Notes under the pieces: model-generated
The model's input: the letters and a program-made list of their open reading frames with translations, nothing else
What the model was told of the DNA's origin: nothing
Databases searched by the model: none
In this document: positions 29-24,295 of the stretch, in pieces
How the letters are laid out: every line of letters begins with the position of its first letter
Position numbering within the stretch: the first letter of the stretch is position 1
UHGV virus genome: UHGV-0069400
Length of the DNA stretch: 25,507 bases
Origin: a virus
Direction: 5' to 3' (one strand)
Program-made: the position numbers and the translations under genes

Positions 29-370
29 ATGGGGGATGCGGCAGAACTTAAGGCTGTGCTTGAGGATGGCGGTATCGCCCGAGTGAAAAAGCAGGATTTG
101 GGAAGCGATGAAATTTCCACACACCTGGAAGCTGGCAAGCTCGTCACAAAGTTGGCTCTCGACTGGCAGAACCGCATTAAATTTACACTGGACCATAACT
201 TCAGCCTTACCAGCGTCAAATTTGCGGATGAATTGCTTGAGCAGAACTCTGATATTGATAGTGAAGATGTTGCGCAGCGACTGGACGCAGATTTCTTCCT
301 GTTAACCAGTGAAATTTCGTGCCTGGTTGATGCTCTGGTAAATGCCCTGGGCGGAGAGGCTAAGCAGTGA
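29..370 (+). CDS. Hypothetical protein, possibly 5'-truncated by the window edge
   Basis: ORF of 113 codons from the first ATG; the frame is open back to nt 2, so the true start may lie upstream of the window. Its TGA stop overlaps the GTG start of the next gene (GTGA). No recognisable motif. Confidence 0.4.
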
Positions 371-3300
371 AAGAGCTGTGCTATGGATCTGTTTGCAGTG
401 GAATTGAAGCCGCGAGTATTGCCTGGGAACCGTTGGGTATGCGTCCGGCGTGGTTTGCTGAAATCGAGCCTTTTCCATCTGCCGTTCTTGCGCTCCGCTG
501 GCCCCATGTCGCCAACCTTGGCGACATGACAAAACTTGCCAAAAAAGTCTTGGCTGGGGAAATCGAATCCCCTGACGTGCTCGTCGGGGGAACACCATGT
601 TTTACCGCGGGGCATATGGTTCTTTGTAAAAATGGTTATAAACCAATAGAAGATGTTTGCCCTGGCGATTACGTAGTCAGTCATCTCGGGCGGTTACAAC
701 AAGTAAAAAGAGTTGGTTCAAAAATAGCTAATACGGGGTTACTTAATGCCGTTGGGCAGCCTTTAGGTATAAGAACAACCAATGACCATCCCTTCCTGGC
801 GGTTCGGTGGAAAGCCCAAAACACCCGGAAAAATGGCACATATTTTAAGAGAGAGTTGTTGTCTGAACCGGAATGGCGAGCAGCATGTGATATGCCGGGA
901 TATCAATGGTGTGCTCTAACTAATTTCAATATTGCATCTCCAGATATTTGTTCTCGGTTCTTGTCTGAAGAACAGGCTATGTATCTTGCGGGCGCTTATG
1001 TTGGCGATGGATATATTAGGAGATGGAGAGGTAAATCTAAGAAGGCGGTTGTTTTTGGCATAAATTGCCAGAAATTGAGAAAGTTTCATTGCCGCATACC
1101 AGAAAACATATTTTCCGTGGCAAGCGAAATCCGAGGGAGCATCAAAGTAACCTTGAATGATACGTGTTATGCCAATTGGCTTAATGAACATTTTGGCGAG
1201 TTAAGCCATGCTAAGCGTATCCCTGCATGGGTGATGTCGCATCCATTGCGTCATGTGTTTTTACAAGGCTATCTTGATACTGATGGGACACCAAGTGGTA
1301 AAGCGGGATTTAGAATTAATAGTGTTAGTCCTGCGCTTGCTTGGGGCGTTGCGGAGTTGTCACAGACTTGTGGTTATGTTTCTTCGGTCAGCTTTATTGA
1401 AGTTGAGCCCAAAAAAGTGATCGAGGAGCGCGTGGTAAATCAACGGAATTATTATCAGGTAACAATCTGCCCGCAGAAATTGTCACGTAAATCAAGATTG
1501 GCTCATGGAATGCTTTTACGAACAGTCAAAGAGTTTAAATCGGTAGGCCTAGATACTGTATACAACATAGAAGTCGAAGGTGATCATTCCTATATCCTCA
1601 ATGGTGCGGTGGTCCATAACTGTCAGGCATTCAGTATCGCTGGATTACGTGGCGGGCTTGATGATGAGCGTGGCGCGCTAACTTTAAAGTATGTGGAGCT
1701 TGCAAATGCAATTGACGACAAACGGGCTGAGTCATTTCTCAAACCAGCCGTTATCGTCTGGGAAAATGTCCCAGGAGTCTTGTCATCGGCAGATAACGCC
1801 TTCGGGTGTTTCCTTGCCGGATTGGCTGGAGAAGATGCGCCATTTGAACCAGGTGATCGACCTGAATCAGGAAAAAGTAACGCGTTCTGGCGGTGGGATG
1901 GCAAAACCGGTTGCCATGCTCCAAAGTGGCCGCAGTGTGGTTGTATTTATGGACCGCAGCGAAAGGTGGCCTGGAGAATCCTTGATGCCCAATACTTCGG
2001 AGTGGCACAACGACGCCGACGCGTGTTTGTTGTCGCAAGTGCTCGAACAGACCTCGATCCCGCAACGGTACTTTTTGAGTTCGAAGGCGTGCGCCGGGAT
2101 ATTGCGCCGAGCCGAAAAAAGAAGGAAATCGCTTCCGCCATTATTGCAAATGGCGCTGCAATCAGTGGCGAAAGCCTAAATCCATGCCTACACGCTGACA
2201 TGCCACCCGGTATGAAATCGACGAAAGCCGTAAACGCTTTCAGGATGGCAGCATTTGGGGAATATATTGACGATGAAACCGCATCGACAGTAAAGGCAAG
2301 AGATTTTAAAGATGCCACTGACCTTGCCGTTTTTAGCAGCACAGGAGCAGGTTTTTGGTCAGAAGGGCATGGTACATTGCGGGCACGTGAGCAAGAAAGC
2401 CATGAGCATCTTGTTACATTGGCTTTTCCTGAGCGTATGAGCGGTACACAACATGCTGCAACTAAGAATACTTCACCATCTCTAATGGCTAAAAGTCCAA
2501 CAGCTGTTTGCTATGAAGTAAGAAACGCAGAAGTAGCTGTCCGCCGTCTTACCCCTGTCGAATGTGAAAGGCTGCAAGGTTTTCCTGATGGACATACGTT
2601 GATCCCGACGGAAAAGCGTAAAAAAGTTAATTCAGATGAACTGGCATATCTTCGCAATCACTATCCAGATTTAAGCGAAGAAGAGGCCGCGATGCTTGCA
2701 GCTGACGGACCGCGTTACAAAGCGATCGGCAATAGTATGGCAATACCAGTAATGCGCTGGATTGGCGATCGGATTACTAAGGCCGTATGTCGGCAGAAAG
2801 AAAGAAGTGAAACAAAAGAGCGAAAAGTTAAACCAGCGGCAGAATTCGAGCGGTCCATATTCAAATGGGCTGGTGGAAAATTTGGTGTTCTGGAACAAAT
2901 CTTTCGCTATTTGCCAGAAGGGAAGCGCCTGATTGAACCTTTTGTTGGTGGCGGAGCTGTCTTCATGAATGCCGGATACCAGGAAAATCTGCTAAATGAT
3001 GTGAATGCTGACCTGATTAACTTTTACAAGACTCTGCAACGCGAGGCGAATTCACTTATCACTCTGGCACATTGTTTCTTCCAGGACTACAACACACAGG
3101 AAGGATACCTGGCAGTACGGAATGCGTTTAACAAACAAGTCTATGATGATTTACATCGCGCAGCGGCGTTTTTGTTCCTGAACCGACATTGTTTTAACGG
3201 ATTGACGCGTTACAACCAGGCCGGTGAGTTCAATGTCGGTTATGGGAAGTATAAAACTCCGTATTTCCCATTGCAGGAGATGGAAGCCTTCCTTGGTGCG

Positions 3301-3654
3301 GAAGGGCGTTCTGAGTTTGTATGTGGTGATTTTGCTGCGGTGATTGAAGCTGCCGGAGAAGGAGATGTCATCTTTTGCGATCCGCCGTATGAACCGCTCC
3401 CAAATACAGAGGGATTCACGAACTATTCCGGTCATGACTTTAAGTTTGAAGAGCAAAAACGCCTGGTGTCTCTGTTGACGGATGCTCATCGCCGAGGTGC
3501 AAAGGTTCTCATTACTAACAGTGGCGCGCCAAACATCAGAGAACTTTATCAGGACAGTGGCTTCAGAGTGGAACCTCTTTTTGCCAGACGTTCTGTGTCT
3601 TGTAAGGGGGACACTCGAGGTGTTGCTCATGACGTTATAGCGATATTGCTCTAA
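367..3654 (+). CDS. dmt: Bifunctional DNA methyltransferase: N-terminal C5-cytosine MTase (interrupted by an intein) fused to a C-terminal Dam-like N6-adenine MTase
   Basis: 1095-codon ORF, GTG start. C5-MTase motifs: motif [12 protein letters not shown], motif IV split as GGTP / intein / CQAFSIAG, then [40 protein letters not shown]-terminal Dam-like domain: [18 protein letters not shown]. Excising the intein leaves 754 aa. The symbol is assigned by analogy with the P1 bifunctional methyltransferase and is from memory. Confidence 0.8.
598..1620 (+). mobile_element. Intein (341 codons) with LAGLIDADG homing-endonuclease domain, inserted in C5-MTase motif IV
   Basis: Starts with Cys ([20 protein letters not shown], block A-like) directly after GGTP. 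Block B TTNDHPF; two LAGLIDADG motifs ([22 protein letters not shown]); blocks [23 protein letters not shown], ending His-Asn followed by +1 Cys (CQAFSIAG). In-frame joining restores [12 protein letters not shown]. The segment looks AT-richer than the flanks by eye. Confidence 0.85.
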
Positions 3655-3674
3655 TAAATTTATTAGTGTAATAT
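3645..3674 (+). promoter_or_regulatory. C1-type operator pair overlapping a sigma70-like promoter
   Basis: ATTGCTCTAATAAATTT at 3645-3661 is a perfect match to the operator consensus and overlaps the methyltransferase stop codon. An inverted, overlapping second site AAATTTATTAGTGTAAT lies at 3656-3672 (2 mismatches). TTGCTC (3646-3651), 17-nt spacer, TAATAT (3669-3674) forms a -35/-10 pair. Confidence 0.6.
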
Positions 3675-3838
3675 CGCCTCAATGAATCGTGATTTATAGA
3701 GCGATTTAGCTGTTAGCCGCGACAGGCGCGGCGGCAAGTATGGCGGGGTAGTGACTCCTTCCCCCTCATGACGCCGAGTTGCCAGGTTGACCATACACCT
3801 AAGTGGCAACACCGAAGTGCGTTACGAGCTTCCAGTTT

Positions 3839-3864
3839 GCCCATCTTCGGGTGGGCGTTTTTTT
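3839..3864 (+). terminator. Rho-independent terminator
   Basis: 7-bp stem GCCCATC/GGTGGGC (one G-U wobble) with a TTCG tetraloop, followed by G and seven T. Confidence 0.65.
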
Positions 3865-4329
3865 CAGGGTTTTCGTCATGGTTAGCGACTTTGCGGCGGT
3901 TTAGAAACTGACCATTAAAGTAAATGCAAACGATGATCTGATGATGGTAGCGGCCTAAGAAGCCAGACGCCACGGGGTATGAGTCGTCCCCCGTCAAAAA
4001 ATCGACCGCAGAGTGTCCCCGTCTGTGTATTAGGGAACGGGGAGGCACAACAGGTAAGGGCGCTGGTGTGATTAACCAGATGAACGAGAAGGGGCCATCT
4101 GTTGGTCAGCGTCCTTTCCTGTTGCGTCTTCTTTTCAGCGTAACAGCGGTGCTTAACAGCACTTTGGGTACAGTTCCACGAATTTACGGGTATATCCCGT
4201 CATGCTGAAAGCGCTAATCACGCTGGAAGCCAGGGTTATGCATCCCCTGTTACCGAATTGCAGCCAGGGCGCGGTGCGCCGAAAAGCATACGGAGGTGGA
4301 AGCCCTCGCCGGAGACGTACCCGGCAAGT

Positions 4330-4405
4330 GATGGTGTAGCTCAGCGGTTAGAGCGGTTGACTGTTAATCAACGGGTCGATGGTTCAAATCCATCCACCAT
4401 CGCCA
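4330..4405 (+). tRNA. tRNA-Asn (anticodon GTT)
   Basis: 76-nt cloverleaf folded by hand: acceptor GATGGTG/CACCATC, D-arm GCTC-AGCGGTTA-GAGC, anticodon arm GTTGA-CTGTTAA-TCAAC, T-arm GATGG-TTCAAAT-CCATC, discriminator G, encoded CCA. Confidence 0.9.
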
Positions 4406-4407
4406 AT

Positions 4408-4483
4408 GCCGGTTTAGCTCAGTTGGTAGAGCGCCTGCCTTGTAAGCAGGATGTCAGCGGTTCGAGTCCGTTAACCGGCACCA
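4408..4483 (+). tRNA. tRNA-Thr (anticodon TGT)
   Basis: 76-nt cloverleaf: acceptor GCCGGTT/AACCGGC, D-arm GCTC-AGTTGGTA-GAGC, anticodon arm CCTGC-CTTGTAA-GCAGG, T-arm AGCGG-TTCGAGT-CCGTT, encoded CCA. Starts 2 nt after tRNA-Asn. Confidence 0.9.
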
Positions 4484-4491
4484 ACACAACA

Positions 4492-4565
4492 GGTAAGGGT
4501 ATTTTGCGACGTCGGAGATCGCCGTGCTTGGCAGAGGGTTCGAATCCCTACGAAGTACCCTTACC
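4492..4565 (+). ncRNA. tRNA-like element lacking a canonical anticodon arm (tRNA remnant or minimal tRNA-like RNA)
   Basis: 74 nt closed by a perfect 8-bp stem GGTAAGGG/CCCTTACC. Contains a D-arm-like hairpin GCGA-CGTCGGAGA-TCGC and a T-arm-like hairpin AGGG-TTCGAAT-CCCT, but no 5-7-5 anticodon arm, and 8 unpaired nt between the T-stem and the 3' acceptor strand. Starts 8 nt after tRNA-Thr. Confidence 0.45.
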
Positions 4566-4711
4566 GTTGTGATGAAGTGCAGCTCTTAGAAGCAACCAGA
4601 AGATAAGCATCTGGCTTCACAACATAAACCGCAGGAACGACCAATAAACGGTAGTCCGTATGGAGAACACCCCGTTGAGGAAGAGGCCTGGCCGGAACCG
4701 TAACCGGCACT

Positions 4712-5914: not shown

Positions 5915-5990
5915 GGCCCTTTAGCTCAGTGGTTAGAGCTGGCGACTCATAATCGCACGGTCACCGGTTCAAGTCCGGTAGGGGCCACCA
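5915..5990 (+). tRNA. tRNA-Ile2 (anticodon CAT, presumably lysidine-modified; elongator Met not excluded)
   Basis: 76-nt cloverleaf: acceptor GGCCCTT/AGGGGCC, D-arm GCTC-AGTGGTTA-GAGC, anticodon loop CTCATAA, T-arm ACCGG-TTCAAGT-CCGGT, encoded CCA. Body resembles E. coli ileX as I recall it; the G1-C72 pair argues against initiator tRNA. Confidence 0.85.
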
Positions 5991-19464: not shown

Positions 19465-20193
19465 ATGAAAGGCGAAGTGAAAGAGCGCGGCATGATTTTC
19501 AACGATGAGATGGTCCGGGCCATCCTCGAAGGAAGGAAAACGCAGACGCGGCGGATAATGAAAAATCAGCCTGCGGAAGTTGGTCCAGAAGCACCAGTGA
19601 TGGTTAGAAAAATTGGTGCAGGTTTTCAGTGGTACGGGGCTGATGGTGTAAGCAGTGTTTTCAATTGCCCATTTGGTATCGTCGGCGATCGAATTTGGGT
19701 TCGTGAAACATGGGCGATATTAGGCAATGAGGATGGTTGCAGTGTGGACTGGAACGACAACCTTTGTCGTGGCGATGAGAAGAACGCAGCAAGGATTTAT
19801 CGGGCCAGTTGCGAGCAAAAACCTGGTGATTACGGCTTATGGTCGATACCCGATGATGCCGACTGGAAACCTCACACTGTGAATGAAAAGTTTGATGGTG
19901 GGTGGCGTCCATCAATTCACATGCCGCGATGGGCATCACGCATTCTGTTGGAAATTACCAACGTGCGCGTTGAACGGTTGAACGATATCAGCGAATGCGA
20001 TGCAAGGGCTGAGGGCGTTCCGCCTGCTGGAAGTTTGCTTCCTGATCACCCGGGAACATTCCTTACTCCCAAGGGGGATTTCGCAATGGCCAAGGTTGCG
20101 TTCCAGCGCCTGTGGGAATCCATCTATGGTGAAGAAAGCTGGAACGCTAATCCCTGGGTGTGGGTAATCGAGTTTAAGCGCATTCAGGAATAA
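19465..20193 (+). CDS. ASCH-domain-like protein
   Basis: 242 codons. GGGGG upstream. N-terminus MIFNDEMVRAILEGRKTQTRR fits the ASCH GxKxxxxR pattern as I remember it. Confidence 0.45.
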   Translation: MKGEVKERGMIFNDEMVRAILEGRKTQTRRIMKNQPAEVGPEAPVMVRKIGAGFQWYGADGVSSVFNCPFGIVGDRIWVRETWAILGNEDGCSVDWNDNLCRGDEKNAARIYRASCEQKPGDYGLWSIPDDADWKPHTVNEKFDGGWRPSIHMPRWASRILLEITNVRVERLNDISECDARAEGVPPAGSLLPDHPGTFLTPKGDFAMAKVAFQRLWESIYGEESWNANPWVWVIEFKRIQE

Positions 20194-20196
20194 ACC

Positions 20197-21075
20197 GTGA
20201 GTATGCATCAAGTCGTCAGCTTTTCAGGTGGACGAACATCGGCTTATCTCGTTCATCTGATGGAAGCACAGCGAAAAGCTGGCGCTAGCGTCCATTTCAT
20301 TTTTATGGATACCGGCTGTGAACATCCTCTGACGTATCGCTTTATTCGTGAGGTTGTGAAGTTCTGGAACGTACCGCTAACGGTGTTGCAGGTCGATATA
20401 AATCCAGAACTTGGGCAGCCAAATGGTTATACGGAATGGGAACCAAAGGATATTCAGACGCGAATGCCGGTGCTTAAACCGTTTATGGACATGGTTAAAA
20501 AGTACGGTACGCCATACATCGGCGGCGCGTTCTGTACCGACAGGCTAAAACTCACCCCTTTCACGAAATATTGCGATGACCATTTTGGGCGAGGGAATTA
20601 CATCACATGGCTCGGTATTCGTGCGGACGAACCCCGTAGGCTGAAACCGAAACCGGGCGTCCGGTATCTTGCCGAACTGTCAGATTTTGATAAGTCGGAT
20701 GTTATCCGGTGGTGGCGAAAACAACCTTTTGATTTGCAAATCCCGGAGCACCTCGGGAACTGTGTTTTTTGCATCAAAAAGTCAACGCAAAAGCTGGGGC
20801 TTGCATGTAAAGACGAACCAGGTCTGATGCGGGTTTTTAATGAACTGGTTACAGGCAAACACGTCAGGGATGGTCATCGCAGAACAGGTAAAGACGTTAT
20901 GTACCGTGGCCACCTGACGCTTGACGGGATTGCCAGAATGTATGCCGACAGTGACTACAGAAATTTGTATCAGGCGATGGTGCTGGCCAAGCGGTTTGAT
21001 ACTGGTTCGTGTTCCGAATCATGTGAAATCTGGGGTGACCAATTGGAGTTGAAATTCGAAGAGGTAGTGGAATGA
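20197..21075 (+). CDS. PAPS-reductase-family protein (PP-loop ATP-pyrophosphatase fold)
   Basis: 292 codons, GTG start (or ATG at 20203). PP-loop SFSGGRTS near the N-terminus. C-terminal Cys cluster CSESCEIWGDQ. Confidence 0.7.
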   Translation: MSMHQVVSFSGGRTSAYLVHLMEAQRKAGASVHFIFMDTGCEHPLTYRFIREVVKFWNVPLTVLQVDINPELGQPNGYTEWEPKDIQTRMPVLKPFMDMVKKYGTPYIGGAFCTDRLKLTPFTKYCDDHFGRGNYITWLGIRADEPRRLKPKPGVRYLAELSDFDKSDVIRWWRKQPFDLQIPEHLGNCVFCIKKSTQKLGLACKDEPGLMRVFNELVTGKHVRDGHRRTGKDVMYRGHLTLDGIARMYADSDYRNLYQAMVLAKRFDTGSCSESCEIWGDQLELKFEEVVE

Positions 21076-21275
21076 CAATCGTAAAAACCCATACCGGCAC
21101 CGTGATCACCAAAGACGGTCCGAAGGTAAAAAAACTGCACCAAACAGAGCGGATGTGGGTCGTTGGCAAAAACGAGTTTTACCACAAAGAAACTGGACGC
21201 CGCCATTTTGCAGAAAATACGCGCCGCCGACTGCTGTTAGACACCATCAAGCCTATCGAGGTGAAGCATGTTTAA
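21072..21275 (+). CDS. Small hypothetical protein (67 aa)
   Basis: ATG overlaps the upstream TGA (ATGA). Basic protein, no motif. Confidence 0.4.
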   Translation: MTIVKTHTGTVITKDGPKVKKLHQTERMWVVGKNEFYHKETGRRHFAENTRRRLLLDTIKPIEVKHV

Positions 21276-21507
21276 ACAGAACGAAAAAGCTATCGCTCAA
21301 ATTGCTGATTATATCCCGCGTGCGTGCCGGGGTATGCAGTTGCAGGAAGCCAAAGCGCGCCTGGAGAAAAAAATTGCGCTCTATATTGATGACGGCTGTG
21401 ATTCCGCCGTTCTTAACGCGGCGTTCGCACCAGCTCTTAACTGTCACACTCGGGAGTCTTTTTTTTCGTGCATCGCAGCGCAACTCCGCCAAGGAGGCAA
21501 CCAGTGA
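21268..21507 (+). CDS. Small hypothetical protein (79 aa)
   Basis: ATG overlaps the end of the upstream ORF by 8 nt. Confidence 0.4.
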   Translation: MFKQNEKAIAQIADYIPRACRGMQLQEAKARLEKKIALYIDDGCDSAVLNAAFAPALNCHTRESFFSCIAAQLRQGGNQ

Positions 21508-22148
21508 GTAACCGTTTTTACATGATGTGCTTGCGTGAAACTGTGGGTAATAACGCCTCATTCCATTGCCATAACGGCAATGGTTACAGTTCTGATATCG
21601 ATCGAGCACATGTTTACACGCAGGAAGAAGCCCAAAAAGCCTGGAATTGTGGTCGAGATATCGATCAGCCTGTTTGCGCTGATAGCGTGGATGCAATGGC
21701 TGTGTGGCACGTTGATTGCCAGTACATCCCCACAGAAAGCCTGATTGAGTCAGATTGCACTGCGTATGTGGCCTACAAAAAAGGTAGCTGGAACGGCAAC
21801 GATGTTTACTGGCTTCAACACGGTGGATTGCCAACAGATGACTTCAGTAAAGCGACCATCTTTAGCGTCGCCAACAAAAACGAACCAGGAATAGTTTGGT
21901 TGCCATTTTCCATTGCTGATGCAGCAAAGCGTCGGACGTTCAATATCAATAACTTTAACCGCAGAACAATGGTTCAGGGCGCAGGTTTGGTCATGCCTGA
22001 CTGGTTGAAAGAGCAGAACAGAAGAAAGAAGTCGCGAAGCGGGAAGGTGCGTTGGAATTGTCCGCATTGCGGAAAAATAACCTGGCAGTACAGCCCATAT
22101 GATTTTGAAGGCTGTAGTGATTACAACTGTGAAGGATGGCGAGAATGA
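21504..22148 (+). CDS. Hypothetical protein with C-terminal zinc-ribbon
   Basis: ORF track starts at 21468; GTG 21504 has AAGGAGG 7 nt upstream and overlaps the previous stop (GTGA). C-terminal WNCPHCGKITWQ...CSDYNCEGW. Confidence 0.45.
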   Translation: MSNRFYMMCLRETVGNNASFHCHNGNGYSSDIDRAHVYTQEEAQKAWNCGRDIDQPVCADSVDAMAVWHVDCQYIPTESLIESDCTAYVAYKKGSWNGNDVYWLQHGGLPTDDFSKATIFSVANKNEPGIVWLPFSIADAAKRRTFNINNFNRRTMVQGAGLVMPDWLKEQNRRKKSRSGKVRWNCPHCGKITWQYSPYDFEGCSDYNCEGWRE

Positions 22149-22891
22149 CAATTGACTATCAGGCACTGCGTGAGGCGGCAGAGCGTGCAATTCCGGCAAT
22201 GGAACACCTGTTAATGTTGCCAGTTGATGATGATTTGTTAACTGAACAGGAACTTAAGGATTACGGTGTGGATATTGATGCGCTCAACGCCTTCAAATTT
22301 CTGACCGGACCAGAAACCGTGCTGGCACTACTGGATGAACGGGAAAGAAACCAGCAATACATCAAACGCCGCGACCAGGAGAACGAGGATATTGCGCTAA
22401 CGGTTGGGAGGCTGCTAATCGAAAACGGCCAGCTTGTTGCCGATACGCTACGCCACTTAGCTGATAACGAAATCGACTCTGATTATTTTGCTATCACCTC
22501 AACGAATGAGAACGGTACTGAAATTGATCATGAGATGGCTATTACCGATTACGCACTGCAAGCTGCCGGAACTGTAGACGAATTGGTTGCAGCGCTGGAA
22601 TCCGCAGAGAAGCGCATAGCAGAACTGGAAGCACGGGAAATAAAACCAGCCAAAGGCGAAGTTCTTGTCGTTGTATCTGGTTTTACTGGTTGCGGAAAAA
22701 GCGCCATTGCCGGGGAAATAGAAATCGCGATGAAGGCTATTGGTGTACCGGTTAAGTGGACTAATGGCGATGCAGAAAAGCGCATGACTGGCGCTGACTG
22801 GCTGACAGCGATTGAGATGTACAAACCAACTGTGCGCATCGCGGAAGTTAATGTGCCACGCGCCGCTGGCATTCGCATCAAAGGAGAGTGA
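22145..22891 (+). CDS. Hypothetical protein, possibly Ea22-like
   Basis: ATG 22145 overlaps the upstream TGA (ATGA); the ORF track starts at 22136. N-terminus MTIDYQALREAAERA resembles lambdoid Ea22-type proteins as I recall them. Confidence 0.4.
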   Translation: MTIDYQALREAAERAIPAMEHLLMLPVDDDLLTEQELKDYGVDIDALNAFKFLTGPETVLALLDERERNQQYIKRRDQENEDIALTVGRLLIENGQLVADTLRHLADNEIDSDYFAITSTNENGTEIDHEMAITDYALQAAGTVDELVAALESAEKRIAELEAREIKPAKGEVLVVVSGFTGCGKSAIAGEIEIAMKAIGVPVKWTNGDAEKRMTGADWLTAIEMYKPTVRIAEVNVPRAAGIRIKGE

Positions 22892-22896
22892 GTGAT

Positions 22897-23094
22897 ATGG
22901 ATAAAAACACCACTGCTTACTGGAATCTGTCACTTGATACCGAATGCCCCAAATGTGGTCACAATTTCGATCTGCTCTGTGATGCTGATTTCTGGGAGTT
23001 TTCTGGAGCAAAACAGGCATGTGAAGAAATAAAAGGTTACGAAACATGCTGCCCAGAATGTAACCATGAATTTAAAACAGATTTTGTGTATTGA
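22897..23094 (+). CDS. Small zinc-ribbon protein (66 aa)
   Basis: GGAG upstream of ATG 22897 (ORF track uses GTG 22888). Two CxxC pairs: CPKCGH and CCPECNH. Confidence 0.45.
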   Translation: MDKNTTAYWNLSLDTECPKCGHNFDLLCDADFWEFSGAKQACEEIKGYETCCPECNHEFKTDFVY

Positions 23095-23104
23095 GGCATA
23101 ACGA

Positions 23105-24295
23105 ATGACCACTTTTACTAAAGAACAATTAATAGAGATAATTAAGCGCAATATAACGGTTATGGATCGTTATCCTGATTTAGTAACTGCACAAATGGAT
23201 CTGGAAGTATACAAAATCGCGCTGGCATCACTGGAAGCAGAACCAGTTGCTTATATTTTCAAACATCCGGCCGGGAAATTATTCTGGGCTTTAACGGATG
23301 AAAGCAATAAAGAGCAACCGGACGTTATTCCTGTTTATGCTGACTCACCTGCGCCGGTTGTGCCGGATGAAATAGACGTAAACGATGTACCAAGGGCGGT
23401 GACATATTTCAAGACACACAGAGATTGTTACGCAGATGGCTGGAACGCCTGCCGCGCCGCCATGCTTCAGTCCGGAAACTTTCGGGAAAATAAGAATTCG
23501 TCAACCAATAATTTTCGGGAAATCGCGGAAACGTCAACCAACTATCCGGTAATTCCTAGTGAGGTGTTGTCCGCAATCCTGAAGGTTGCCAAGATTCGTG
23601 CCGATTTCGATGATTTTGACGGTGACAGGCGAGGTATCGGTGATTGTCTGGATGAGGCTGAGCAAGAGCTTATCGTTACCATTAACAAATATGCCAGTCA
23701 GTTGGCAGCAGAACCGATAGCGACTAATGACGTTCGAGAGCAAACAGCCGTTCCGCCAGTTCCTGTAATACAGGCTGATGTCGCGCAGGCAATTGAAAAA
23801 CTCAAACGGAAATTAGTGGAATGCAATCGCTATAACTACTGCGCAGATGCAGTTAAGGGCGTTGAGTATGCCTGCCACGCTGCCATGCTTCAGGGTAGCC
23901 AACCTGTAAGCCAAACTTACAAGTTTCCAGTTAATACACCTTGCCAGGATGCGCCAGCCCATATCTGGCTGCAAACAGCTGGAGTATGGCCAGAAGATGG
24001 CGAGTTAAGCGAATTAACGTGGTGCAGCCACAATCAGCACCATGATGACACGCTATATGTTCGAGCTGACTTGGTAAATGGCAATTCTCAGGTAACTCCG
24101 GATGGTTGGATAAGCTGTAGTGAGCGAATGCCCGCTCAAGATGATTGGATTTTAATTTATTCAAAGCACGGTGAGTATATGGCAGGACAGGTGCAAGGGG
24201 AATACGTGGAGTTGAGCGACGGCACTTTATCCTGGTTAGGGAACGCCTTGTTCTGGATGCTGCTACCAGAACCTCCCCAGGAGGCAGGTCAATGA
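23105..24295 (+). CDS. Hypothetical protein with internal repeats and DUF551-like C-terminus
   Basis: 396 codons. GAGG upstream. Repeated ACRAAMLQSG / ACHAAMLQGS segments. C-terminal GWISCSERMPAQDDWILIY...WMLLPEPP resembles the DUF551 pattern as I recall it. Confidence 0.45.
   Translation: MTTFTKEQLIEIIKRNITVMDRYPDLVTAQMDLEVYKIALASLEAEPVAYIFKHPAGKLFWALTDESNKEQPDVIPVYADSPAPVVPDEIDVNDVPRAVTYFKTHRDCYADGWNACRAAMLQSGNFRENKNSSTNNFREIAETSTNYPVIPSEVLSAILKVAKIRADFDDFDGDRRGIGDCLDEAEQELIVTINKYASQLAAEPIATNDVREQTAVPPVPVIQADVAQAIEKLKRKLVECNRYNYCADAVKGVEYACHAAMLQGSQPVSQTYKFPVNTPCQDAPAHIWLQTAGVWPEDGELSELTWCSHNQHHDDTLYVRADLVNGNSQVTPDGWISCSERMPAQDDWILIYSKHGEYMAGQVQGEYVELSDGTLSWLGNALFWMLLPEPPQEAGQ

Follow-up and report, generated by a model that had tools for sequence, protein, structure and literature searches.

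A putative LAGLIDADG intein at the catalytic cysteine of the bifunctional methyltransferase Dmt in a P1-like phage-plasmid

The long methyltransferase gene analyzed here is most distinctive for a 341-aa insertion at the catalytic Pro-Cys of its C5-cytosine methyltransferase domain, which by sequence and predicted structure is a class-1 intein carrying a LAGLIDADG homing endonuclease, and which presumably splices. We consider it very probable that the gene is the P1 dmt of an IncY phage-plasmid, invaded by a selfish intein that would splice out to yield Dmt and would home into intein-less alleles. The first-pass annotation of the window (the whole stretch of DNA analyzed, 25.5 kb) had described a single polypeptide fusing a C5-cytosine and a Dam-like N6-adenine methyltransferase; this fusion is real, but the intein was underplayed. 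Because the ORF is the ortholog of P1 dmt, the fusion of C5 and Dam domains was already known and is ordinary by itself, and the added value lies in the intein.

The window is 100% identical to E. coli plasmid pCombat11I9-3 and is part of a P1-like (IncY) phage-plasmid; the whole element is about 115 kb. The protein of the 1095-aa ORF is 100% identical to WP_148119546 of the same plasmid, and the ORF is 98.8% identical to the dmt of RCS47. The gene order is syntenic with P1, running from rdgC/hrdC through dmt, tRNA-Asn, tRNA-Thr, plp and upl to ban and the baseplate genes, and the GTG start of dmt overlaps the rdgC/hrdC stop (GTGA) as it does in P1. At the other end, the Oban/ban promoter sequence ATTGCTCTAATAAATTTATTAGTGTAAT, identical in the window and in P1, overlaps the dmt stop codon. 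In P1, dmt is a member of the C1-repressed, lytic-phase uhr-hrdC-dmt operon, and the P1 GenBank record annotates a C1 operator, Odmt, upstream of dmt. The ORF is longer than P1 Dmt by 341 aa; with residues 78-418 removed in silico, the remaining 754 aa gave 739 of 754 identities (98%) to P1 Dmt (AAQ14041), which bears out the earlier statement that the spliced length equals that of the P1 bifunctional methyltransferase. On this alignment, the ORF is the P1 dmt ortholog, predicted to encode a bifunctional orphan enzyme with an N-terminal C5-cytosine and a C-terminal Dam-type GATC N6-adenine methyltransferase.

Both methyltransferase domains proposed for the one ORF were recovered in Pfam and NCBIfam searches, with E-values far past chance level. 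The Dam half matched PF02086 (D12 N6-adenine methyltransferase; residues 834-1067, E = 3e-56), TIGR00571 (Dam; residues 830-1092, E = 5e-74) and, in a PDB search, E. coli Dam structures (E = 4e-58), and the motifs KWAGGK, FxGxG and DPPY that had been pointed out in it lie at residues 833-838, 859-863 (as FVGGG) and 1005-1008. The C5 half matched PF00145 (E = 1e-29) in three separate stretches on the unspliced ORF; on the spliced protein, the match was contiguous (residues 8-135) and rose from 104 to 125 bits (E = 6.6e-36). The C5 motifs I, IV, VI, VIII, IX, and X were all located [Table 1], and HhaI and HaeIII matched this domain in the PDB search. RefSeq labels the whole protein just 'Dam family'.

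Table 1. Predicted features of the dmt precursor gene and its downstream neighbor, in window coordinates.
Feature	Position	Strand	Basis or remark
dmt precursor ORF (N-extein, intein, C-extein)	367..3654	+	1095 aa; GTG start at 367, TAA stop at 3652-3654
N-extein, aa 1-77	367..597	+	Motif I to GGTP of motif IV; alignment with P1 Dmt
C5 motif I, SVCSGIE	388-408	+	
Motif IV, GGTP	586-597	+	
Class-1 intein, 341 aa (C1 ... H340-N341)	598..1620	+	Residues 78-418; absent from P1 Dmt, clean boundaries
Intein block B, TNDH (T61, H64)	778..789	+	Invariant in family alignment
LAGLIDADG (DOD) homing-endonuclease domain	955..1407	+	About intein residues 120-270; PF14528, AF2, fold matches
LAGAYVGDG	985-1011	+	First LAGLIDADG motif
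LQGYLDTDG	1261-1287	+	Second LAGLIDADG motif
Intein blocks F/G, end His-Asn	1558..1620	+	TIGR01443; Spl DnaX mini-intein C-terminus match
Cys419	1621..1623	+	Putative +1 extein nucleophile and catalytic Cys of motif IV (PCQ)
C-extein, C5-methyltransferase part	1621..2790 (end approximate)	+	Profile matches, motifs, HhaI and HaeIII
Motif VI, ENV	1759-1776	+	
Motif VIII, QRRRRVF	2008-2028	+	
C5-methyltransferase variable (TRD-like) region, 173-aa allele	2029..2547	+	Allele comparison
Motif IX	2542-2586	+	
Motif X	2722-2742	+	
Dam-family N6-adenine methyltransferase domain	2854..3642	+	TIGR00571, PF02086, E. coli Dam structures
KWAGGK	2863-2880	+	
FVGGG	2941-2955	+	
DPPY	3379-3390	+	
P1 Oban C1 operator and ban promoter region	3645..3675	+	P1-annotated features; neighbor, not part of the protein

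In motif IV, the insertion separates Pro77 from the catalytic Cys (GGTP↓CQAFS, the arrow marking the junction), and therefore this Cys would be the +1 splicing nucleophile too; in-silico splicing rebuilds GGTP↓CQAFSIAG, identical to the intein-less alleles. A Hint splicing domain is split by a nested LAGLIDADG endonuclease domain (Pfam Hint_2 and LAGLIDADG_3, PF14528), which is the sole endonuclease domain found at the locus, and NCBIfam TIGR01443 (intein_Cterm) matches residues 398-419. The class-1 residue set is complete, with C78, T138-N-D-H141, D406, H417-N418, and C419 of the ORF corresponding to C1, T61/H64, D329, H340-N341, and C+1 of the intein. An alignment with relatives that are only 24-53% identical shows no change at C1, T61, H64, or N341 and at least 90% conservation at D329 and the +1 Cys; of the endonuclease residues, K206 never varies, and D137 and D229 (D214 and D306 of the ORF) reach at least 90% conservation. 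The intein has a GC content of 43% vs 49% in the exteins. Sequence matches in the PDB were weak (Spl DnaX mini-intein, E = 0.0015; PI-PkoII, E = 0.023), so structure prediction and fold search were needed. The AF2 model of the intein (pLDDT 92.9, pTM 0.89) has beta-rich termini and an alpha/beta segment at residues 124-257, and its top Foldseek matches were PI-SceI (E = 4e-17), TliVMA, PI-PfuI, and PI-PkoII, with PhoVMA also found. Further fold matches were the GyrA and Prp8 inteins for the splicing domain and I-DmoI, I-SceI, and I-OnuI-type enzymes for the endonuclease domain, the latter being predicted to adopt the alpha-beta-beta-alpha-beta-beta-alpha pseudo-dimer fold.

We then compared dmt alleles with and without the intein. 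Of 498 plasmid records that bear dmt, 133 have the intein, as do 152 of the 480 dmt-bearing complete E. coli genomes, about a third (∼3% of all 5426 complete E. coli genomes), and at least one laboratory P1 isolate carries it. Every intein match listed in the plasmid and E. coli genome searches coincided with a dmt annotation or had no gene listed over it, and the intein-bearing E. coli genes are annotated merely as 'Dam family methyltransferase'. The intein sits in three backbones of dmt, of 672, 754, and 807 aa (plus 341 in each case), all of which also exist without it. One plasmid carries an IS91 inside its dmt gene. All 22 complete intein-plus alleles have an open intein of 1023 nt with no frameshifts, and their synonymous diversity (piS) is 0.012 in the intein, ∼7-fold below that of the flanks (0.098 in the N-extein and 0.081 in the Dam end). 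Purifying selection on the intein is still detectable; it was rejected as the cause of the low diversity, since synonymous sites are where diversity is lacking and piN/piS is higher in the intein (0.35) than in the exteins (0.16-0.22). The base at junction position -1 is A in 22 of 22 intein-plus alleles and T in 54 of 54 intein-minus alleles. The linked flank markers look like co-conversion: upstream they fade the farther they lie from the junction, and downstream, as far as about +116, they are at or near fixation (21-22 of 22). The polymorphism, the three backbones, the low piS, and the marker gradient fit recent or ongoing homing, with cleavage presumed. Conceivably, the intein was instead acquired once, and ordinary homologous recombination between P1-like plasmids then produced the flank pattern with no endonuclease action. 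The A/T split at -1 could also mean that the surviving empty sites are perhaps cleavage-resistant, and the homing would therefore be past and not ongoing.

For the invaded dmt gene, we infer all four of the following steps. The 1095-aa precursor would first be made from the C1-repressed operon in lytic growth. The intein would then be excised through an N-S acyl shift at Cys78, transesterification to Cys419, and cyclisation of Asn418, joining Pro77 to Cys419 and rebuilding the GGTPCQAFS catalytic loop in the 754-aa Dmt. Cys419 would serve as the splicing nucleophile first and as the catalytic nucleophile of the methyltransferase afterwards, and therefore the C5 domain should be inactive before splicing; the separate Dam domain need not be. 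In the third step, mature Dmt would methylate GATC, as documented for P1 and as needed for pac cleavage and packaging, and would probably methylate cytosines too, at sites set by the swappable variable region, which would protect the progeny from restriction. Finally, when two P1-like genomes meet, the freed endonuclease would cut intein-less dmt at ...ACGCCT↓TGTCAGGC..., and repair would copy the intein with short flanking tracts into the cut allele.

The gene had also been proposed to be an orphan multi-specificity methyltransferase acting mainly in broad protection against host restriction, a reading that is partly supported and that we consider less likely than not. Two methyltransferase chemistries are united in one protein with no restriction enzyme nearby, and the gene belongs to a lytic-phase operon. 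The region between motifs VIII and IX consists of mosaic alleles of 91, 173, 226, and 281 aa in P1-like elements, and these exchangeable modules recall the multispecific phage C5-methyltransferases with tandem target-recognition domains (PMC12707154). With such a modular, swappable region, anti-restriction by the C5 half is plausible. However, the only documented role of P1 Dmt that we found is GATC methylation of the pac site by its Dam activity for packaging, and hence dmt is essential in Dam- hosts (review PMC12707154). In the P1 GenBank note, Dmt is a 'bifunctional DNA methyltransferase' with GATC and, just 'perhaps', C5 cytosine as its targets, and broad protection leaves the 341-aa insertion unexplained. 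Moreover, most E. coli hosts are Dam+ themselves, and further GATC methylation would add little protection there; for the C5 half of the P1 family, we know of no described sequence specificity.

A regulatory use of the intein seems rather unlikely to us. The precursor would already be Dam-active and m5C would appear only after splicing, so that the intein would be a post-translational timer staggering the two methylations in P1 lytic growth, or a redox- or stress-sensitive switch acting via Cys78 and Cys419; separately, P1 would hold a natural, actively homing E. coli intein. The intact splicing residues, their conservation among such divergent relatives, the 22 open alleles, the detectable purifying selection, and the high-confidence predicted fold likewise make it unlikely that the intein is dead, that is, a relic that no longer splices and leaves the C5 half permanently disrupted while the Dam domain methylates pac. 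This is so even though some P1 lineages may not need the C5 half, as W74 replaces the conserved G of motif IV in reference P1 (VWGTPCQ), one dmt allele carries P77L, and a CRISPRi screen scored dmt as non-essential. Selection for splicing would then possibly be weak, and the somewhat relaxed piN/piS of the intein and the RefSeq name would agree with a relic.

The earlier remark that no restriction endonuclease lies nearby holds: two independent annotations and a Pfam scan of 10 less-characterized ORFs gave no restriction-endonuclease domain or annotation in the window. There was only a weak sub-threshold VRR-NUC match in PmgM. Membership in a Type II restriction-modification system was rejected, there being no cognate endonuclease next to the methyltransferase in the window. 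It is very unlikely that dmt is the methyltransferase half of a restriction-modification system with an endonuclease beyond the window, even if the window covers only part of the element and P1-family elements carry such systems elsewhere (e.g., Type III EcoP1I res/mod). EcoP1I has its own Mod subunit, laboratory P1 with res/mod deleted retains dmt, the dmt operon of P1 includes no endonuclease partner, and the neighbors in the window are rdgC, tRNAs, ban, and tail/baseplate genes. An annotation or assembly artefact, with the extra 1 kb being an IS, a group I/II intron or a misassembly, is hardly credible, as nothing besides the unusual length and the one IS91-bearing dmt speaks for it, whereas the insertion keeps the reading frame, measures exactly 1023 nt without a stop, has the same length in more than 150 independent complete genomes, and is matched by intein and LAGLIDADG profiles and fold, and Rfam found only three tRNAs and no intron RNA in the whole window.

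E. coli is generally regarded as lacking native inteins, yet the dmt intein is carried by P1-like phage-plasmids in the share of complete E. coli genomes given above. In silico, the population data on the invaded dmt point to recent homing with unusual clarity, which standard P1 genetics could test directly; if true, P1, the classic genetic workhorse, would be a tractable in vivo system for intein homing and co-conversion. The 1013-, 1095-, and 1148-aa 'Dam family' proteins would be intein-containing Dmt precursors, which is relevant to genome annotators, users of P1-derived vectors, and the typing of P1-like AMR plasmids.

No published description of an intein in Dmt or P1 was found in the literature on inteins in P1-like phage-plasmids and C5 methyltransferases or, for the P1 genome, in the GenBank notes. 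Literature matches to engineered toxin-inteins, to inteins in other genes of Pectobacterium phage CB7, and to a CASP14 N4-methyltransferase were unrelated. C-5 methylases are among the intein hosts listed for actinobacteriophages (bioRxiv 10.1101/2025.01.02.630785), and inteins have been described in mycobacteriophage DNA methylases (DNMT-1/2 in Kelley et al., 2016, PMC5050341; also Gosselin et al., 2023, PMC9957025). The mycobacteriophage methylase inteins are distant LAGLIDADG relatives of the dmt intein (∼27% identity), reside in orphan phage methylases, and show patchy distribution with evidence of horizontal transfer between divergent methylases (PMC5050341, PMC9957025). They were rejected as the same insertion allele because their exteins are N6/N4 methylases and their junction differs (…VVKN↓CPLQF in Pacc40 gp60).

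Relatives with 27-52% identity over the full length share the P↓C...(H/N/K)N↓C(Q/T) junction in C5-methyltransferases of Mannheimia, Propionibacterium, and Lactobacillus phages, a jumbo coliphage, and metagenomic contigs, which suggests that this lineage targets the motif IV site in phages of Proteobacteria, Actinobacteria, and Firmicutes. In Mannheimia phage 587AP2, Propionibacterium phage B22, Lactobacillus phage Nyseid, and jumbo coliphage A4, the site is identical (Pro↓catalytic Cys), but the host proteins are single-domain C5-methyltransferases, whereas here the host is a C5 and Dam fusion in a P1-family phage-plasmid of Enterobacteriaceae.

With PI-SceI, PI-PfuI, PI-PkoII, and TliVMA, the dmt intein shares its architecture and predicted fold (Foldseek E = 4e-17 to 3e-9), as well as C1, TxxH, the two LAGLIDADG Asp residues, the terminal HN, and the +1 Cys. 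Sequence identity to them is only 10-16%, the dmt intein is smaller (341 aa vs 361-537 residues in the matched chains), and its extein is a DNA methyltransferase in place of the V-ATPase, polymerase or RNR of PI-SceI-type inteins. In P1 dmt (formerly dam) and in the gene of the window, the domains come in the same order, the gene follows hrdC/rdgC in the operon and starts with the overlapping GTGA, and the Oban operator and tRNA genes lie downstream. The two differ in motif IV, where the reference P1 protein has W74 and no intein, whereas the window allele has G74 and the 341-aa intein, and P1-like dmt alleles elsewhere differ from the window allele in the variable region.

The dmt ORF (1,095 aa, GTG start, TAA stop), whose GTG overlaps the stop codon of the upstream rdgC/hrdC (GTGA) in an arrangement identical to that of phage P1, carries a D12/Dam N6-adenine methyltransferase (MTase) domain (PF02086, E 3e-56 in Pfam; TIGR00571, E 5e-74 in NCBIfam) and a C5-cytosine MTase domain (PF00145, E 1e-29 in Pfam), the match to which is split into three stretches. 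The first-pass annotation had read the gene as a fusion of these two folds, which the domain search bears out, and the KWAGGK, FxGxG, and DPPY motifs it named were all located. This fusion in one ORF is genuine, far beyond chance, and is already known as P1 Dmt. What the annotation under-described is an intein, the sole non-routine feature of the gene.

In an alignment with P1 Dmt (754 aa), we found a single clean insertion of 341 aa, which starts with CFTAGH, finishes with VVHN, and is followed by Cys419. The flanks GGTP and CQAFSIAG place the insertion in C5-MTase motif IV, where it separates the Pro from the catalytic Cys; the junctions of intein-less dmt, putative targets of the intein endonuclease, read GGGGGTACGCCT followed by TGTCAGGCATTC and GGGGGAACACCT followed by TGTCAGGCATTC. 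Profile searches found Hint_2, LAGLIDADG_3, and an intein C-terminal splicing region, the presence of which is the reason for an ORF of 1,095 aa and not 754 aa. Deletion of the insertion in silico yields a product of 754 aa, 739 of which are identical to P1 Dmt, in agreement with the 754-aa match to the P1 enzyme given in the first-pass annotation. In this product PF00145 is contiguous across the junction (residues 8-135, profile positions 5-119) and its score increases from 104 bits in the precursor to 125 bits; C5-MTase motif IV is restored on predicted splicing. An Rfam search found no intron-like RNA in the window.

Features of dmt, its intein, and the surrounding window
Feature	Window position	Dmt precursor residues	Remark
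dmt ORF	367-3654 (+)		
Intein insertion	598-1620	78-418	
Hint_2		77-126	profile search
LAGLIDADG_3		298-362	profile search
Intein C-terminal splicing region		398-419	profile search
Variable region between C5-MTase motifs VIII and IX	2029-2547		other alleles at dmt loci L003, L070, L074
D12/Dam MTase		830-1092	PF02086, TIGR00571
KWAGGK motif		833-838	
FVGGG motif		859-863	
DPPY motif		1005-1008	
Diverged patch	3740-3775		P1 68761-68795
tRNA-Met (CAT)	5915-5990		ARAGORN
Accessory stretch	19465-24295		differs from RCS47 and P1
PAPS-reductase-domain ORF	20197-21075		accessory stretch
Ead/Ea22-like ORF	22136-22891		accessory stretch
396-aa ORF with C-terminal DUF551	23105-24295		accessory stretch

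In an alignment with 12 homologs (24-53% identity), the class-1 splicing residues (C1, T61, H64, D329, N341, and the +1 Cys) the two LAGLIDADG motifs (G132-D137-G138 and G224-D229-G230), and K206 are invariant or at least 90% conserved, and the window copy has the penultimate His. An AlphaFold2 model of the intein, built with the homolog alignment as input, reached a pLDDT of 92.9 and a pTM of 0.89; its Foldseek matches in the PDB were PI-SceI (E 4e-17), the TliVMA and PhoVMA inteins, PI-PfuI, and PI-PkoII, followed by mini-inteins and the free-standing LAGLIDADG enzymes I-DmoI and I-SceI. The intein is in frame and stop-free in all complete copies examined. As judged from these residues, the catalytic inventory for both splicing and endonuclease activity is intact in the window copy, and the putative endonuclease encoded within the dmt ORF is a homing endonuclease, not a restriction enzyme. 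The window intein differs from most other copies at two positions outside the conserved catalytic sites, E253 (G253 in most) and E277 (D277 in most), and the exact window protein occurs in only two of 22 sampled alleles.

The intein is widespread among P1-like elements. Of the plasmid records in PLSDB, dmt was matched by 498 and the intein by 133 (129 at 99% identity or more); among 5,426 complete E. coli genomes, the Dam end of dmt is present in 480 and the intein in 152, with all intein copies at least 99% identical and the Dam end mostly at 95-99%. In both sets, the listed matches are all either annotated as dmt or outside any listed gene. Five of 153 E. coli intein copies are chromosomal, presumably in integrated or chromosomally assembled P1-like elements. 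In an E. fergusonii plasmid (NZ_CP057105.1), an IS91-family transposase interrupts dmt near the intein start, and in two further E. fergusonii records (NZ_CP070875.1 and NZ_AP028818.1) the match to the intein is confined to its first 76 nt and, in one of them, abuts the record start.

We then compared the backbones of 76 complete dmt alleles from IMG/VR loci and reference records. Dmt is 672, 754, 807, or 862 aa long without the intein and 1,013, 1,095, or 1,148 aa with it, every intein-plus length being an intein-minus length plus 341 aa. These length classes correspond to four mosaic alleles of the variable region (91, 173, 226, and 281 aa), which carry the intein in 10/15, 11/53, 1/3, and 0/5 cases, respectively. 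The alleles, at least four in number, share modules, the 281-aa allele combining segments of the 226-aa and 173-aa ones, which suggests modular target-recognition domains and different m5C specificities among P1-like elements. The lab P1 isolate 'del res del mod' (OP279344.1, 61684-64725) carries the intein at 99.4% aa identity together with the 91-aa allele, giving a Dmt of 1,013 aa and hence a dmt gene markedly unlike the one in the reference P1 genomes. Reference P1 c1.100 mod749::IS5 (AF234172, dmt at L001:3001-5262) itself reads VWGTPCQ at Dmt residue 74, where 74 of the 76 alleles read VGGTPCQ, and IMGVR_UViG_2630968766_000004 reads GGTLCQ at residue 77, replacing the motif IV Pro by Leu. 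Both changes lie in the C5-MTase catalytic loop and may be inactivating, in which case reference P1 may not represent the C5 activity.

Among the 22 intein-plus alleles, diversity is lowest in the intein (pi 0.006, piS 0.012, piN/piS 0.35), followed by the C-extein over motifs IV-VIII (0.012, 0.031, and 0.22), the Dam end (0.030, 0.081, and 0.17), and the N-extein (0.035, 0.098, and 0.16). The contrast in piS indicates that the intein coalesces about 7-fold more recently than its carrier alleles, and the intein is still under purifying selection. Its GC content is 43%, against 49% in the exteins. At the base before the junction, which is the third of the Pro codon, all 22 intein-plus alleles have A and all 54 intein-minus alleles have T. 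Upstream, none of the 54 intein-minus alleles has the intein-linked variants at -22, -48, -104, and -118, which 18, 16, 17, and 14 of the 22 intein-plus alleles carry, respectively; downstream, the intein-plus alleles are uniform or almost uniform (21-22/22) at the markers between +23 and +116, the intein-linked base being found in only 13-17 of the 54 intein-minus alleles. Part of this pattern could also be explained by a single gain of the intein and subsequent ordinary recombination between P1-like plasmids. Taken together, distribution, diversity, and flank markers look like the expected footprint of homing with short-flank co-conversion, which is not proof of it.

The precursor is predicted to splice to the 754-aa Dmt, with Cys419 serving first as the splicing nucleophile and second as that of the MTase; the C5 half would therefore be inactive before splicing, while the Dam domain, being separate, may already be active. 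Once freed, the LAGLIDADG enzyme would cut dmt copies lacking the intein in cells that contain two P1-like genomes, and the intein would be copied in during repair. The Dam activity of P1 methylates GATC, and packaging depends on it at pac; in Dam- hosts dmt is therefore essential (PMC12707154). A CRISPRi screen scored dmt as non-essential, and the P1 GenBank note describes C5 methylation by Dmt only as 'perhaps'. Of the earlier interpretation, an orphan bifunctional MTase giving broad protection against host restriction, the first part stands; the documented role is packaging control. The variable region would set the m5C specificity, and anti-restriction protection through it may occur. The absence of a restriction endonuclease near the MTase was confirmed as far as annotation and profiles reach: none is annotated across the window in either of two records, and a Pfam scan of ten less-characterised window ORFs returned only a sub-threshold VRR-NUC match in PmgM.

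The region matches E. coli plasmid pCombat11I9-3 (NZ_CP021729.1; IncY, non-mobilizable, 115 kb) at 100% identity, phage RCS47 at 98.8%, and P1 at 97.8% over the parts present in P1. The remaining window is a standard P1 block (tRNA-Asn, tRNA-Thr, plp, upl, tciA, a CAT-anticodon tRNA, ban (dnaB), dbn, baseplate/tail genes 5, 6, 24, 7, 25, and 26, pmgL-S, and pap) plus a variable accessory stretch, several ORFs of which had no match in a Pfam search. In the P1 record, dmt closes the uhr-hrdC-dmt operon under the C1-repressed promoter Pdmt, located before the start of the window; conservation extends to the Oban operator overlapping the dmt stop codon. The P1 equivalent of the tRNA-Met is annotated trnI, a tRNA-Ile2 with a CAT anticodon, presumably lysidine-modified. 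Between dmt and the P1 'dicF-like region', intergenic DNA that is otherwise ∼99% identical to P1 contains a short patch of high divergence, and Rfam made no DicF call there at the gathering threshold.

Our literature search found no description of an intein in P1, P1-like phage-plasmids, or E. coli, and public records name the intein-bearing proteins only Dmt or 'Dam family' methyltransferase. It is notable that an element with no description found is common in E. coli phage-plasmids and present in a sequenced lab P1 isolate, that the catalytic Cys of the MTase would double as the +1 nucleophile of the intein, and that a clean population signature of recent spread occurs in a highly tractable system. 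An intein-only search found relatives of 47-52% identity in metagenome Dmt-like C5-MTases and Mannheimia phage 587AP2, and of 27-33% in C5-MTases of Propionibacterium phage B22, Lactobacillus phage Nyseid, EBPR siphovirus 2, and jumbo coliphages such as A4. In all relatives inspected, a Pro precedes C-[F/V]-x-A-G at the start and [H/N/K]-N precedes C-[Q/T] at the end. The closest named relative, in vB_MhS_587AP2 (47.7% identity; locus 2264-4584), lies in a C5-MTase whose frame appears to be interrupted immediately past the +1 Cys-Gln, ending CQSDKGG..., with the remainder annotated as a CDS of its own. Downstream of this C5-MTase is an HNH homing endonuclease gene, which indicates that selfish elements have targeted the C5-MTase gene on more than one occasion. 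C-5 methylases are among the known intein hosts in actinobacteriophages (2025 survey, bioRxiv 10.1101/2025.01.02.630785), and LAGLIDADG inteins inserted in motif IV of C5-MTases from phages are already a known kind of element. The mycobacteriophage 'DNA methylase' inteins (∼27% identity) reside in N4/N6 methylases at a different insertion site.
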